Source: Kagunavirus BCH953P1
Sequence record: OZ035754.1
Length of the DNA stretch: 44,622 bases
Strand: one strand, 5' to 3'
Under the pieces are notes generated by a model, which saw only the letters and a program-made list of their open reading frames with translations, was not told the DNA's origin and ran no database searches. The position numbers and the translations under genes were made by a program. Positions 2,796 through 36,517 of the stretch are shown one piece after another; the first letter of the stretch is position 1; each line of letters opens with the position of its first letter.

Positions 2796-3872
2796 ATGCT
2801 ATTAACTTTAGCGCCACAGGGTTTATCTATGAGATTACTTACATCCCTAATCAGCCACCAGATTTGGCTGCAACGCACCGCATCGGGCGAAGTGAAAGAC
2901 CTTGCGCCTTTCATTAAGGAGATGCGGGACGAAATCAAACGGCAGGTGCTGCTGTTCGGTGACGATGGGCGTAGCACCGCGCGACTGAATAAACTGTTAC
3001 GCGACCTGGAAGAAGCACTGAGCGGACTTACGGGCGACTGGCAAACAAAGCTGACGGAAGACCTTAAGGAACTGGCGGAGTATGAAGCAGAGTGGAACGT
3101 AAAAACGCTGACGGCTAACGTTAACGCGGAATTTGTTACACCCGCCGCCGAGCAGGTGTGGTCCGCTGCCGAGTTTCAGCCTCTGTCGCTAAGCGACAAG
3201 CCTGTCGATTTCACCAAGCTGATGTCGGACTGGGGTGAAACGGAGGTTGCGCGCCTGGTAACTGGTGTTAAGATGGGTTTCGTACAAGGGCAAACCACAC
3301 GGCAGATTGTTAAGAATGTTGTAGGCGCTGGCGGACTGGCCGACATCTCAGAACGTAACGCAGCTACCGTAATCCGCACCGCGCTGTCGCACGTATCCAA
3401 CGAAGCCCGTAACGAGACGTACCGCCAGAACGACGACATCATCGAGAAATACGAATGGGTATCAACGCTGGACAGCCGTACCAGTACGATTTGCAGAGCC
3501 AGAGACGGAATGACGTGGGAAATCGGTAAAGGGCCGATGCCCCCCGCCCATCCGAACTGTCGATCGTGCACGGCACCGGTAATCAGTTCAGAGTTCGATT
3601 TCCTGGATAAAGGCGCGAAACGCGCAGCTAAGGGCGCAGAAGGTGGTACTCAGGTAAGCGCAGACACCACTTACTACGAGTTCCTGAAACAACAACCGGC
3701 ATGGTTTCAGGACCAGGCTCTCGGGCCAACCCGCGGTAAGATTTTCCGCAACAGCGGTATATCGCCGGAGGAGTTTCGCGTAATATCTGTAGATGGTTTC
3801 GGGAATCCGCTCACGCTTAAGCAGATGGCGGAACTCGATAAACGTGTTGCTGATTATCTGAAAGGGGAATAA
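2796..3872 (+). CDS. head morphogenesis protein (MuF / SPP1 gp7-like)
   Basis: 358 aa after portal; conserved gene order; start uncertain (alternative ATG at 2829). Confidence 0.65.
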   Translation: MLLTLAPQGLSMRLLTSLISHQIWLQRTASGEVKDLAPFIKEMRDEIKRQVLLFGDDGRSTARLNKLLRDLEEALSGLTGDWQTKLTEDLKELAEYEAEWNVKTLTANVNAEFVTPAAEQVWSAAEFQPLSLSDKPVDFTKLMSDWGETEVARLVTGVKMGFVQGQTTRQIVKNVVGAGGLADISERNAATVIRTALSHVSNEARNETYRQNDDIIEKYEWVSTLDSRTSTICRARDGMTWEIGKGPMPPAHPNCRSCTAPVISSEFDFLDKGAKRAAKGAEGGTQVSADTTYYEFLKQQPAWFQDQALGPTRGKIFRNSGISPEEFRVISVDGFGNPLTLKQMAELDKRVADYLKGE

Positions 3873-3955
3873 TGATGGGCTTTTTCAAAGTAACTGATTC
3901 CTAAGGGTAGAGGCGGTAAGCAAGGCGGCGAAGGTTACTAAGCCAGAATGATATG

Positions 3956-3985
3956 AGGCCCCGTTAAGGGGCCTTAGTTTTATTT
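3956..3985 (+). terminator. rho-independent terminator (aggcccc-gtta-aggggcct then T-rich)
   Basis: GC hairpin followed by tagttttattt; sits after the head morphogenesis gene and overlaps the 3' end of the minus-strand ORF 3964..4200. Confidence 0.55.
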
Positions 3986-4200
3986 AAAGAATATCGCGAA
4001 CTTCTTGTAACCCGCTGGCTCGTTGCGCTGACCATGTTCGATAGCAAAACGTTGAACGTTGTTAAAATCGTTCTCTTCCATACCGTCGGTGCAAAAGGTA
4101 AAAAAAAGTTACGTTTGTTTCCGATAAGCACACGGCTCGCAACATCAATGCTGTAAAGTTCTTCGATAGCGCGTACCACGTTTGCAGTAGCTTTGTTCAT
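3964..4200 (-). CDS. hypothetical small protein (78 aa as read; contains an internal A8/T8 homopolymer, alternative frame possible)
   Basis: Track ORF; reverse-oriented inside the structural block; preceded by conserved promoter P1; C-terminal half runs into the terminator hairpin. Confidence 0.4.
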   Translation of the reverse strand: MNKATANVVRAIEELYSIDVASRVLIGNKRNFFLPFAPTVWKRTILTTFNVLLSNMVSATSQRVTRSSRYSLNKTKAP

Positions 4201-4235
4201 TTCTAAATTCCTTATCTCTCGTTTCGATGTAATGA

Positions 4236-4264
4236 ATAGTACCCTATTATATTGGGGTGCGCAA
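4236..4264 (-). promoter_or_regulatory. sigma70-type promoter P1 (TTGCGC-N17-TACTAT), B-family
   Basis: On minus strand TTGCGCACCCCAATATAATAGGGTACTAT; identical over about 33 nt to the copy at 13781..13809; immediately upstream of the minus ORF 3964..4200. Confidence 0.6.
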
Positions 4265-4539
4265 ACTGTTTATTCACCTATTTCAGTTATTCCACTTGAT
4301 TGTAAATGTCGGAATAAACTATTCGAATAGTTGACTTTTCACTGAAAATATGATAAGCTCCACCTGAGCTTGTGAAGTATGAACAAGCGACCGCGGCGCG
4401 GGCAGGTAACGGAGCGGGACGTAAGTCCTGAGTGTAGTTACGCTGACGCGTTCGGAAGGGTCATACTATATTGCTTGTGTAAAAAGTAACTGGTTTACTG
4501 AGATTACGCCGTTTCTATGTTTAAATGATAAGGACTAGC

Positions 4540-4567
4540 GCCCCGCTTTACGGCGGGGCTTTACTTA
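4540..4567 (+). terminator. hairpin (gccccgc-tttacg-gcggggc) followed by tttactta
   Basis: Seen directly; lies just upstream of the spanin gene start. Confidence 0.4.
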
Positions 4568-4583
4568 TCGAGAAAGGAGAAAC

Positions 4584-4970
4584 ATGAATCTTAAAGCAAC
4601 TGTCGTAGCAGGAGCATGTTTCATCGTCCTGGCTTACGCACACGGCATCTACCAGTATCGCAGCGGCTGGAACGAAGGCCGGGCGAATCTCGTTTCGCAG
4701 CAACAGCAGAAGGCGCAGGCTGAGTTAGCGAAGAAAACACAACGGCAGCAGCAGGACGAATCAAAGGCTGCCGCTGCTGACAACGAAGGCAAGACGAAAT
4801 CAGAGGTGATTACCCGTGAAGTCGTTAAGTACATTAAAACGCCTGGCCGCAGCGTGTGCACTTTTGACCCTGAGCGCGTGCAGCTCAAGTCCCGCGCCGT
4901 CGCAAACGCAAATTCCATCCCCGGATACGACGATGATGCAGCCACCGTGCAAACTGGCACCGCCAAGTAG
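4584..4970 (+). CDS. i-spanin (Rz-like inner membrane spanin)
   Basis: 128 aa; N-terminal TM segment (VVAGACFIVLAYAHGIY), Q-rich coiled-coil middle; SD AAAGGAGA; contains the embedded o-spanin ORF. Confidence 0.65.
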   Translation: MNLKATVVAGACFIVLAYAHGIYQYRSGWNEGRANLVSQQQQKAQAELAKKTQRQQQDESKAAAADNEGKTKSEVITREVVKYIKTPGRSVCTFDPERVQLKSRAVANANSIPGYDDDAATVQTGTAK

Positions 4971-6930: not shown

Positions 6931-6958
6931 GAGAGGGACTTCGGTCCCTCTTTTCATT
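6931..6958 (+). terminator. rho-independent terminator after capsid gene (gagagggac-ttcg-gtccctc then ttttcattt)
   Basis: Stem with TTCG tetraloop followed by T-run, seen directly. Confidence 0.65.
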
Positions 6959-13765: not shown

Positions 13766-13780
13766 TGTTGGTGTAAGTGA

Positions 13781-13809
13781 ATAGTACCCTATTATATTGG
13801 GGTGCGCAA
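13781..13809 (-). promoter_or_regulatory. sigma70-type promoter P2 (TTGCGC-N17-TACTAT), identical copy of P1
   Basis: Same about 33-nt sequence as at 4236..4264; precedes the minus-strand cassette 13765..11351. Confidence 0.6.
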
Positions 13810-14337: not shown

Positions 14338-14702
14338 ACGCGCTGTACAGGTTCGCCACCTACGAGTTCGTTGATAAGCATAAAATCAGAGAGTTTGATT
14401 CTATAGCTGACGGACACGAACAGGCGCTTATCGCGATGGGTGTAATCGATAAGAAAAAACGTGCAGCGCGACGGGGTGGGCCAGAATGCCCGCCCCTTTT
14501 TATATCCACCTTTGAGACGTACTGTGACATTAAGTTTACGCGACACGTGCGCGAGGACGCTGTAGTATTGTTTGCAAGAGAATCCGTTACGTGGCAAGAC
14601 CTGAAAGCCTATCTCGATGTTACGCAAAAACAGCTTAGCCTGTTCGAGATAGACATTATCATGGGCTTAGAAGCAATCTTTGAAGGTAGAAATCATGGCT
14701 GA
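14313..14702 (+). CDS. tail assembly chaperone -1 frame extension (T-like domain, expressed as a G-T fusion by programmed frameshift)
   Basis: The -1 frame is open from 14313 to 14702 and overlaps the last codons of the chaperone gene; A-AAG slippery context (GGAAAAG) at about 14328..14334; canonical position before tape measure. Confidence 0.5.
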   Translation, partial: AQSITGKVDALYRFATYEFVDKHKIREFDSIADGHEQALIAMGVIDKKKRAARRGGPECPPLFISTFETYCDIKFTRHVREDAVVLFARESVTWQDLKAYLDVTQKQLSLFEIDIIMGLEAIFEGRNHG

Positions 14703-26285: not shown

Positions 26286-26600
26286 TTATAATTCCTTATA
26301 TTGTTGGGGTATGTGCTTACTATAATAGTCTGCTATTAGGGTGTCAACCTGTTTTATAGAGCCAACCACAAAAACATTTGCGCCGCGTTTGCGCATCCGC
26401 TCATGTTCTCGTAGCTGGTGCGGGTCTGGCTTCGTGTTTTCGTCTTTCTTAACCTCGACAAACCATATGATGCCGCCGGGGAGCATTACCAGCAAGTCGG
26501 GGGCGCCGGAGCGCCCCTCGTAGGAAAGTTTACGAACGAGGCCCCCCAGGGCCTCGAATCGGTCTTTCGCGTATTTCTGTACGCGGCCCTCTTTAGTCAT
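26286..26600 (-). CDS. VRR-NUC domain nuclease (PD-(D/E)xK)
   Basis: 104 aa; GAPDLLVM ... FVEVK pattern typical of VRR-NUC. Confidence 0.55.
   Translation of the reverse strand: MTKEGRVQKYAKDRFEALGGLVRKLSYEGRSGAPDLLVMLPGGIIWFVEVKKDENTKPDPHQLREHERMRKRGANVFVVGSIKQVDTLIADYYSKHIPQQYKEL
26319..26347 (-). promoter_or_regulatory. sigma70-type promoter P3 (TTGACA-N17-TATAGT), A-family
   Basis: On minus strand TTGACACCCTAATAGCAGACTATTATAGT; lies in the 3' end of the VRR-NUC gene, upstream of 26030..26284. Confidence 0.55.
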
Positions 26601-29837: not shown

Positions 29838-29890
29838 CGTGATTTCTCGCTTTTCAGTTTACTCCGGGAACTGCCCGGCCAGTGATTAGA

Positions 29891-29919
29891 ACTATAATAG
29901 CTAACTATTCAGGTGTCAA
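29891..29919 (-). promoter_or_regulatory. sigma70-type promoter P4 (TTGACA-N17-TATAGT), A-family
   Basis: On minus strand TTGACACCTGAATAGTTAGCTATTATAGT in the intergenic gap upstream of 29214..29837. Confidence 0.6.
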
Positions 29920-33006: not shown

Positions 33007-33035
33007 ACTATAATAGCGAACTATTCACTTGTCAA
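33007..33035 (-). promoter_or_regulatory. sigma70-type promoter P5 (TTGACA-N17-TATAGT), A-family
   Basis: On minus strand TTGACAAGTGAATAGTTCGCTATTATAGT; perfect -35. Confidence 0.6.
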
Positions 33036-33045
33036 TGGGCTTTTC

Positions 33046-33068
33046 TAAAATAATTAATATGGTACTAT
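33046..33068 (+). promoter_or_regulatory. promoter-like element for the HTH gene (B-family -10 block GGTACTATTCAC without a recognisable -35)
   Basis: TACTAT at 33063..33068 with the same flanks as P1/P2/P6; divergent from P5. Confidence 0.4.
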
Positions 33069-33099
33069 TCACATATCAACTGACTAAGGAGTAATTGAC

Positions 33100-35865: not shown

Positions 35866-36032
35866 TTCACATTCTCCTTAATCCACGCTTCCACTTTCTC
35901 CGGGTCAAACGTACCCGGCTGACGGCGGCCCATAATGCGGATACAACAATCCGGGAACTTCCCGCTCTTTAGCCAGTTATTCAGTGTGCGACGAGTAACC
36001 CCGATACGCTCGGCTACTTCATTCTGTGTCAT
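35862..36032 (-). CDS. small HTH DNA-binding protein (AlpA/excisionase-like fold), probable early regulator
   Basis: HTH MTQNEVAERIGVTRRTLNNW; start taken at internal ATG 36032 because the predicted promoter P9 lies at 36066..36093 (track ORF extends to 36065). Confidence 0.5.
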   Translation of the reverse strand: MTQNEVAERIGVTRRTLNNWLKSGKFPDCCIRIMGRRQPGTFDPEKVEAWIKENVK

Positions 36033-36065
36033 TCTCAAACCCTCAGTATCAGTTAACGAAACCAA

Positions 36066-36093
36066 GTATACATTGCGAATAATGGGAAATCAA
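36066..36093 (-). promoter_or_regulatory. candidate sigma70 promoter P9 (TTGATT-N16/17-TATACT) for the minus-strand replication operon
   Basis: Read on minus strand; moderate match. Confidence 0.35.
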
Positions 36094-36182
36094 ACATAAT
36101 CGCACCTATTGACATTATGAAAATCTTCGTTTAAGGTGCTTCTATATCTTAGTTACTTTGATTCCTGTTCACCTTGTAAGAA

Positions 36183-36216
36183 TGTTTAACCCGTGCGTCA
36201 AGCAAAGGGTTAAACA
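36183..36216. promoter_or_regulatory. inverted repeat tgtttaaccc / gggttaaaca (10-bp arms, 14-nt spacer) in the early control region
   Basis: Seen directly. Confidence 0.4.
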
Positions 36217-36370
36217 CAGGCTTACTGAACACGAGAATTATCATAACTTTCCTTCCTTAGTATCTCCGGTTGCCCTGGGCAAGCTATATTCTCATCAACG
36301 GCATATCTCTTAAGTATCTGATTTTCTTAATGTGCCGTAGATTCGCAACCGTAAAAATGTAACCCTTACC

Positions 36371-36394
36371 GGGCGGGCTTAAGGCCCGCCCTTT
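36371..36394 (+). terminator. GC-rich hairpin gggcgggc-ttaag-gcccgccc followed by TTT
   Basis: Seen directly, in intergenic region upstream of P6. Confidence 0.4.
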
Positions 36395-36464
36395 AGTTAC
36401 AAAGTAATAAGAATAAAGGCACGACCCTGCCTGAAGAATCACAACGGCAACGTAACTATTCTCT

Positions 36465-36493
36465 TGCACACCCCAACATAATAGGATACTATT
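36465..36493 (+). promoter_or_regulatory. sigma70-type promoter P6 (TTGCAC-N17-TACTAT), B-family
   Basis: TTGCACACCCCAACATAATAGGATACTAT; near-identical to P1/P2; 25 nt upstream of the first plus-strand early gene. Confidence 0.6.
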
Positions 36494-36517
36494 CACTTAT
36501 CGTAACGAGACAGAGGA

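Follow-up and report, generated by a model that had tools for sequence, protein, structure and literature searches.

Genomic setting and distribution

We analysed the gap ahead of the spanin genes of Kagunavirus BCH953P1 (Guernseyvirinae; sequence record OZ035754.1); the window refers to the whole stretch of DNA under analysis, 44,622 nucleotides (nt) in length. The gap begins at position 4201, past the ATG of an open reading frame (ORF) on the minus strand (3964-4200), and ends at 4583, with the ATG of i-spanin at 4584. Over the gap region the sequence is 99.8% identical to that of OZ035805.1. On the left, genes for the large terminase, the portal and a Mu-F-like head morphogenesis protein are followed by a strong, bidirectional terminator (3954-3976) and by the small leftward cargo ORF; on the right come i-spanin, o-spanin, scaffold, the major capsid protein and the head-tail genes. 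An earlier note on this DNA had seen no convincing ORF in the gap and had suggested that it encodes a small RNA or a structured leader controlling spanin and scaffold expression. The features that we located, most of them parts of a predicted promoter and of an RNA leader with covarying structure, are collected in Table 1.

Table 1. Features of the gap, of the predicted leader RNA and of related sites elsewhere (window coordinates unless a locus is named).
Feature	Position	Strand	Remarks
Conserved block upstream of the promoter	4279-4330	+	About -88 to -37; 69% identity between clades, against 36% in the variable slot
-35 hexamer TTGACT	4331-4336	+	5/6 consensus; GT.GA.TT invariant in 47/47 aligned sequences
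Extended -10 TGaTAAGCT	4351-4359	+	TG 4351-4352, hexamer 4354-4359; TG and TA.GCT invariant in 47/47
Predicted transcription start, G or A	4366-4367	+	From the usual 7-nt spacing after the -10
P0, 5'-terminal hairpin	4368-4388	+	GCUUGU, 9-nt loop, ACAAGC; formed in all variants, with differing stems
Core hairpin	4391-4455	+	Single, unbranched, irregular, ~23 bp; from the minimum free energy fold and covariation
Core helix P1	4391-4393/4453-4455	+	
Core helix P2	4395-4400/4447-4452	+	
Core helix P3	4403-4410/4437-4445	+	G4442 bulged
Core helix P4	4415-4420/4425-4430	+	Loop GUAA
Conserved tail AAGGGUCAUACUAUAUUG	4456-4473	+	Mainly unpaired; end of the module that relatives duplicate
Linker	4474-4526	+	Less conserved; 40% identity between clades; 11-nt indel
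Extended 3' hairpin	4527-4569	+	Forms in 16/16 distinct variants; called by a terminator scan
Shine-Dalgarno AAGGAG and i-spanin start codon	4574-4586	+	4574-4579 and 4584-4586; AAAGG.GA.AC.ATG invariant
36-codon ORF	4379-4489	+	Hypothetical protein in some relatives; rejected as a gene
Repeated promoter/operator box, TTGCGCACCCCAATATAATAGGGTACTATTCA on the minus strand	4233-4264	-	32 nt; neighbour, outside the RNA; drives the leftward cargo ORF 3964-4200
Unrelated structured non-coding cassette	36105-36410	+	Cassette proper 36110-36405; just upstream of the early rightward promoter
Second module copy, locus L190	11804-11897	-	Slot equivalent to window 36030-36430, as for the next three and others
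Second module copy, locus L222	12236-12329	-	
Second module copy, locus L208	1631-1722	+	
Second module copy, locus L227	4193-4285	+	

Forty-eight loci were collected from IMG/VR by way of the i-spanin protein, and 47 sequences, falling into two clades, were aligned. Sequences of the Kagunavirus type share 77-91% identity over the upstream 450 nt; in the Jerseyvirus-type clade the spanin is 63-68% identical and the upstream DNA about 54% identical. Homology picks up again at window position 4279 and reaches the spanin in all 184 Kagunavirus-type records, whatever the leftward slot carries (Dam methylase, a clamp-like protein or small hypothetical proteins). A diverged homologue of the leader was found in 269 further phage records of the Jerseyvirus type, and of the 461 records with a capsid protein of 80% identity or more, about 450 have a leader homologue. 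The leaders of the two clades share 53% identity, compared with 70% for the spanin and 81-82% for the scaffold and capsid genes; since the same parts are present in both clades, the structure has been retained despite this drift. Tighter pattern scans of IMG/VR, metagenomes and GTDB genomes returned the same phage lineages only, plus chance matches rejected by the covariance model described below, and thus neither a remoter relative nor a copy in a bacterial genome; no match to the leader element was found in 5,426 E. coli genomes.

The promoter

The TTGACT hexamer, which the earlier note had placed at about 4331, lies at exactly 4331-4336. Together with the extended -10 it has the sequence features of a sigma-70 promoter: a five-of-six match at -35, a spacer of 17 bp, the TG, and a TAAGCT with T1, A2 and T6 in place. 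We base the promoter call on conservation, the extended -10 and context. The form TTGACT-17-TGnTAAGCT is common to both clades, the Jerseyvirus clade having TAGACT or TTGACT at -35 and TGyTACGCT at -10, and the pattern TTGACT-N15-19-TAAGCT occurs once in the window against an expectation of 0.06. This appears to be the sole promoter for the spanin-to-tail operon. Given the upstream terminator, the leftward gene and the 14 nt that separate the GC hairpin from the spanin ATG, the late operon would need both this promoter and read-through of the hairpin.

The conserved block directly upstream holds an inverted repeat (TTATTCC at 4287-4293, GGAATAA at 4311-4317), and self-BLAST revealed a perfect 16-bp palindrome, AACTATTCGAATAGTT, at 4317-4332, which overlaps the -35 and is absent from the Jerseyvirus clade. 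The block is probably a DNA control site, possibly an UP element or the site of a regulator.

Parts of the leader

The predicted transcript would begin with an untranslated leader of about 217 nt, forming the 5' end of the mRNA for the spanin, scaffold, capsid and downstream structural genes. P0 begins some 2 nt into the predicted transcript; most Kagunavirus copies have a 6-bp stem, and locus L030 and the second copies described below have one of 8 bp (GCUUGUGA/UCGCAAGC). The core hairpin has an internal loop, GGAG / AGUGUA, between P3 and P4, and is followed by an invariant tail (AAGGG...CUAUAUUG), whose CGGAAGG and U..UA positions are retained in both clades and in the second copies. The linker contains a small hairpin (AGUAA at 4485-4489, UUACU at 4495-4499) and the motif AGAUUACGCCGU at 4501-4512, of which AGAUU.CGCCGU is retained in both clades.

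A GC hairpin with a T-rich stretch had also been noticed earlier, at 4540..4567. It consists of GCCCCGC-TTTAC-GGCGGGGC at 4540-4559, followed by TTTACTTATC at 4560-4569; the span first given therefore covers hairpin plus tail. In the window its stem is 8 bp (4540-4547/4552-4559; -15.7 kcal/mol), five of the first 8 nt after it are U, and the U-tract score is 3.0, a moderate tract. This GC stem is the upper part of the extended 3' hairpin, which continues through a middle part (UAG 4536-4538 / UUA 4561-4563) into a lower stem (GAUAAG 4527-4532 / CUUAUC 4564-4569), so placing the tail UUUACUUAUC inside that lower stem. The U-tract score falls to 1.9 in Jerseyvirus-type leaders, and the second copies score about 0.5. 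Because the score drops while the stem persists, it is the stem, with the part paired to the tail, that has been conserved, and not termination. Partial termination is likely in this phage, and would yield an RNA of about 200 nt alongside the read-through mRNA. The ribosome-binding site of i-spanin begins 4 nt past the 3' hairpin and is left unpaired.

Folding and covariation

The plus-strand RNA of 4340-4583 folds to -82.6 kcal/mol (z = -3.78), a stability equalled by none of 200 shuffles; the minus strand folds less well (z = -3.06). In a structure-blind MAFFT alignment of the core, 89% of the cells were paired, compared with 23-43% in slid controls, in which the partners were shifted; six pairs had changed on both sides, and the covariation score was 0.20 against 0.10 for shuffled alignments. 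A model-based alignment of 38 distinct sequences gave 92% paired (28-47% when slid), 10 two-sided changes and a score of 0.31 (0.12 shuffled), with one pair observed in three states (CG, UA, AU) and another in four. The earlier note had named conservation and covariation analysis as one check on its suggestion; the region is kept in the roughly 450 records mentioned above, and in both alignments the core scored above all 500 shuffles. Two conserved G-U pairs would be mismatches on the opposite strand, which places the core on the plus strand.

A covariance model, R1, was built from the core. It gave one match per locus, exactly one in the window and always on the plus strand, and none in 718 kb of unrelated viral contigs; these decoys were 80 of the 120 chance loci returned by a first, overly loose pattern scan of the collections. 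The 24 distinct core variants are all single unbranched hairpins of 18-26 bp (median 22), with loops as different as GUAA, GUUAA, CACA, AUUA and UCUCGA. The constancy of helix length while the loops vary suggests that helix geometry, not loop identity, is under selection, as expected of the substrate of a double-stranded-RNA-binding protein.

The 3' hairpin is maintained in the same manner. Its lower stem is held by compensatory change, GAUAAG/CUUAUC being replaced by UAUACG/CGUAUA in the Jerseyvirus clade, and its upper stem covaries (CG to GC in eight sequences, CG to UA in one, GC to AU in one); in locus L031 the whole hairpin is a perfect 18-bp stem. The gap very probably encodes a real, transcribed, non-coding structured RNA. 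The idea of a structured leader or small RNA was right in kind, in that the RNA is non-coding, follows a conserved promoter of the sigma-70 type and has a plus-strand structure with compensatory changes.

Several further pairings and motifs were considered. A long-range pairing of the 5' end (CUUGUGAAGU) with ACUUAUCGAG past the GC stem gave -8.0 and -7.0 kcal/mol for cognate and -2.8 and -5.1 kcal/mol for non-cognate combinations; it competes with P0 and the lower stem, and one split between the clades underlies the comparison. Across the clades there was no support for CGUUUCU pairing to the stretch between the ribosome-binding site and the AUG. A pseudoknot linking the CUAUA tail to the 3' internal loop was dropped on inspection by eye, as a tail position varies (C/G) without compensation. 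CsrA-type GGA motifs, ops/RfaH and boxA-like sequences, sought by inspecting the 47-sequence alignment, were not kept between the clades.

A second copy of the module and the early-slot cassette

Many Kagunavirus relatives carry a second, diverged copy of the module (50-79 bits), comprising the promoter, P0, core and tail. It lies 11-13 kb upstream, immediately ahead of the early rightward promoter and early operon (Table 1). These copies occur as two sequence variants with a recombination junction near the shared motif CUAUAUU, and are recombinants in which the late promoter and about two-thirds of the leader replace the 5' two-thirds of a cassette native to the early slot. They add compensatory states of their own, such as C-G to A-U in P2, and a GC-rich hairpin is always found 60-130 nt downstream of the module. 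The window has no second copy (the best match in a model search with filters off was 6 bits).

The module would appear to work, or at least to be tolerated, ahead of unrelated genes. Because promoter and RNA recur before the early operon, the module is portable and its action independent of the spanin gene; this argues against a spanin-specific translational switch and for an action linked to the transcript or to the polymerase making it. The control of spanin and scaffold expression envisaged in the earlier note fares less well on this point than the RNA itself: a spanin-specific role is opposed both by the duplication and by the unconserved terminator character of the 3' hairpin.

The early slot of the window holds the unrelated cassette instead. 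It has a TTGACA-17-TAAGGT promoter, followed by about 260 nt without an ORF (-82 kcal/mol, z = -5.98), and ends in an extended GC hairpin, GUAAC...GGGCGGGC-UUAA-GGCCCGCCC...GUUAC. The cassette occurs in 396 phage records, mostly at 60-80% identity, and has conserved hairpins of its own; a consensus fold of six sequences contains 10 compensatory pairs. The invariant GGAAGGG of the late leader (4454-4460) is complementary to a conserved UCCUUCC (CCCUUCC in relatives) at 36250-36256 in the early-slot RNA, over 7 bp (-10.9 kcal/mol), and the latter site is apparently unpaired. The match could be due to chance. As both sides are invariant, covariation cannot test the pairing, and a whole-RNA duplex prediction for the late and early RNAs was uninformative.

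Searches for known RNAs

At gathering thresholds Rfam 15 gave no match anywhere in the window, and thus no riboswitch or ribozyme. With E-values of up to 10 allowed over 3800-4800, the best hit was 17.9 bits, to the GC stem only. The Jerseyvirus-type and second-copy loci likewise had no Rfam 15 match on the module. The perfect-stem variant scored 32 bits to STnc370 (threshold 54) and similarly to many unrelated families, in every case through its terminator-like end. No tRNA or tmRNA was found in the window. A tRNA-Ser, annotated or called by ARAGORN in some Jerseyvirus-type relatives (Salmonella phage celemicas, locus L173, 1425-1502, minus strand; locus L043, 2154-2232), was set aside: it lies on the opposite strand and outside the leader, overlaps the 3' end of a Hoc-like gene and the terminator, is given no call in most relatives, and is probably a false positive.

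Function of the leader

We read the gap as the head of a transcription unit, with a host sigma-70 promoter and a structured leader that would contain a cis-acting stability or processing module, and give this reading a probability of roughly 0.55. Taken separately, action in cis as the leader of the late operon is probable, and a mechanism specifically of stability or processing is a tentative proposal that could easily be wrong. According to this proposal the first ~110 nt would be an autonomous RNA module, made up of the 5' hairpin, the ~23-bp hairpin (two helical turns) and the invariant purine-rich tail, and would act in cis and post-transcriptionally. The paired 5' end would protect the long late transcript against decay that depends on the 5' end, and the two-turn hairpin would be a double-strand-specific processing or protection site, like the RNase III sites in the leaders of T7 and lambda. 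An RNase III substrate is expected to be an unbranched hairpin with some 20-22 bp of coaxial double-stranded RNA, and all 24 core variants have this geometry. The GC hairpin of this phage would halt some transcripts, with the ~200-nt RNA as a by-product.

Several observations weigh against this reading. The -10 hexamer matches consensus at just three of six positions, for which reason the generic promoter scan made no call here. In the Jerseyvirus clade P0 has a weak stem (ACGCU/AGCGU) of 3-5 bp, the number varying with where transcription really starts. A 65-nt covarying hairpin with an invariant base and tail is more than plain 5' stabilisation would require. The U-tract score of 3.0 matches those of the phage's own operon-end terminators (2.4-3.2), and a GC hairpin of terminator strength is no less compatible with a discrete RNA or with an antitermination circuit. 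The compensatory changes lie mostly in a few lineages (the Jerseyvirus clade, L019, L030, L013-like sequences and the two second-copy variants); because most of them split so few lineages, they represent a modest number of independent events. No transcript mapping for this phage group was found in the literature.

It is possible, though unlikely, that the product is instead a discrete trans-acting small RNA of ~200 nt, running from the promoter at 4331-4359 to a terminator at 4540-4569, with spanin and capsid expression arising by read-through. The 194-nt 6S RNA of lambda, made from pR' to tR' just ahead of the lysis genes, would be its formal counterpart. The layout is that of a cassette, with its own promoter, a structured body and a GC hairpin with a U tract of 3.0, and the 3' half matches many small-RNA and leader families, weakly and below threshold, through the terminator-like end. 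The cassette at 36110-36405, counted as related for this purpose and followed by a separate promoter, resembles a free-standing RNA gene; in some genomes the module has been swapped into its slot, and the GGAAGGG of the leader is complementary to the CCCUUCC/UCCUUCC of the early-slot RNA. That complementarity, however, amounts to only 7 bp, with both sides invariant and two of the seven bases engaged in helix P1, and no convincing target was found in the window. Nor is the U tract conserved (1.9 in the Jerseyviruses, about 0.5 in the second copies), and the tail is base-paired within the conserved lower stem. Read-through would moreover be obligatory, because there is no space for a further promoter before the spanin ribosome-binding site.

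A cis-acting transcription-elongation element is rather less likely. Like the put sites of phage HK022, the module would make polymerase resist pausing and termination, and so read the GC hairpin 90 nt further on and later hairpins. Its position suits such a role: two stem-loops at the very start of the transcript, duplicated with the promoter at the head of a second long operon. HK022 likewise has two such sites, putL and putR, processive antiterminator RNAs of two stem-loops and ~70 nt at the heads of two operons (PMC9378689). The GC-rich hairpin that always follows within 60-130 nt scores in the window as a real terminator, which unaided would throttle the capsid operon; terminator-like hairpins also lie within the downstream operons (6931-6952 and 14473-14496), and no Q- or N-type antiterminator is listed in the annotated relatives. 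Against this, there is no similarity of sequence or structure to HK022, whose whole genome gave at best 10.5 bits (E = 0.7, within a tail gene) with model R1 and filters off. The core is one long hairpin rather than the V-shaped pair of comparable stems of put, and its loops and bulges vary freely, which would not be expected if the RNA docked on polymerase. Antitermination would also have little to act on in the Jerseyvirus clade and the second copies, whose downstream hairpin has no U tract.

More speculative still, and improbable, is a protein-independent RNA device that programs transcription complexes at the heads of long operons, either as a put-like antiterminator of unrelated fold or as a switch between the early RNA and the late leader. 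In the pairing version, were it true, the invariant GGAAGGG of the late leader would bind, at the hairpin base, to the conserved CCCUUCC of the early-slot RNA and time the onset of capsid and lysis expression. We know of no late regulator in these virulent siphoviruses.

It is very improbable that there is only a promoter, a spacer and a terminator, with folds that are incidental, or that the element acts as DNA (a protein-binding, packaging or replication site). Regulatory DNA is common between divergent units, and the block at 4279-4330 is probably such a site; the compensatory changes, however, have preserved pairing down to a sequence identity of 53%, the opposite strand, which folds less well, would have A-C mismatches in place of the conserved G-U pairs, and the element begins right behind the conserved promoter.

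That the gap encodes a 36-amino-acid protein at 4379-4489 is scarcely credible: this ORF, which the earlier note passed over in seeing nothing convincing, does exist, is intact in 32 of the 47 sequences and is annotated in Bas70, fBC-Eco01 and SHAK7693, but it is not conserved as coding sequence, being broken, re-framed or without an ATG in the other 15, including the entire Jerseyvirus clade. Single-base indels shorten it to 9 or 17 amino acids in five sequences, the frame differs in L019, the ATG is gone from L030, and all eight Jerseyvirus-type sequences have a deletion of the start region. The ORF has no usable Shine-Dalgarno sequence and lies inside the covarying hairpin, and the substitutions seen in it are those that preserve RNA pairs.

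Comparison with known systems

The closest analogue by position is the late leader of lambda, where pR' is followed by the 194-nt 6S RNA, tR' and then the lysis genes. In both cases lysis and late genes are directly preceded by a sigma-70 promoter, about 200 nt of untranslated RNA and a hairpin resembling a terminator, and late expression requires passage of the hairpin. Control in lambda, however, is exerted by DNA (qut) and a protein, whereas the conserved feature here is a covarying RNA fold, and here the U tract of the hairpin is unconserved. No Q-type antiterminator was found among the 83 annotated genes of Bas70, a survey of annotations that did not include a profile search of our own of the small hypothetical proteins.

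As a portable promoter-proximal RNA, HK022 put would be the closest functional analogue. It shares a promoter-proximal position, a length of ~70-110 nt, stem-loops, two paralogous copies at operon heads (where the second exists) and the lack of an evident dedicated protein. It differs in having two comparable stems instead of one short and one long hairpin; the loops here are unconserved, and no homology is detectable. Position and hairpin count fit a put-type layout while the stem proportions do not, and a downstream terminator is credible only in the late copy of the Kagunavirus type.

For the core alone, the best fit is to the RNase III processing hairpins of phage leaders, such as R0.3 and R1.1 of T7 and that of the lambda N leader. 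These too are unbranched, irregular hairpins of about two turns that contain an internal loop and lie in untranslated leaders behind strong host-type promoters, with structure conserved beyond sequence. The likeness is one of geometry; the invariant helix base and 3' tail of the leader would not be needed by RNase III. P0, finally, resembles the 5' untranslated region of ompA, a 5'-terminal stem-loop that stabilises mRNA, in opening a long, highly expressed mRNA, ~2 nt behind the predicted 5' terminus; a stabiliser role would account for P0 only and not for the 65-nt covarying hairpin.

Implications

The element defines a new RNA family within a familiar kind, the promoter-proximal structured leaders. 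Kagunaviruses and Jerseyviruses are among the phages of E. coli and Salmonella most often isolated for therapy and food safety. In their genomes the gap is usually left unannotated or given a spurious 36-amino-acid gene, although it holds the only evident capsid-to-tail promoter and a fold absent from Rfam; the correction applies to several hundred genomes. The portable module, together with the unrelated early-slot RNA that most genomes have, offers a tractable system for the study of promoter-proximal structured RNAs in virulent phages.

Neighbouring features

The 32-nt box at 4233-4264 has an identical copy at 13778-13809 and related copies at 36464-36495, 33009-33033, 33054-33077, 29890-29919 and 26318-26347. 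It contains the palindrome GAATAG-N4/5-CTATT; some copies overlap a perfect TATAAT and others lie in the spacer of a TTGACA-17-TATAGT promoter, and the box is probably the operator for a phage regulator at early promoters. The motif has been described as tgAATAGTa-ccTATTat-T and termed a 'phage promoter' (PMC9825357). The palindrome at 4317-4332 has the GAATAG half-site of the box in the opposite arrangement.

The leftward ORF 3964-4200 is a frameshifted paralogue, with an A8 run at 4101-4108, of the first early gene that relatives carry behind the same promoter box. Its N-terminal 33 amino acids match the paralogue, and the C-terminal part carries on in the overlapping ORF 3980-4081; the frameshift could reflect a pseudogene, a homopolymer sequencing error or slippage. 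Terminator-like hairpins on the plus strand within the rightward structural operons lie after the portal gene (2770-2785), after the capsid gene (6931-6952) and in the tail chaperone region (14473-14496), and bear on any model of antitermination. A Hoc-like head decoration gene, which relatives carry after the head morphogenesis gene and ahead of the terminator, has lost about 370 bp at window ~3887-3950 (compared with 1112-1482 of locus L001) and retains its last ~50 nt; the head morphogenesis ORF of the window is 10 codons longer than the version in relatives.

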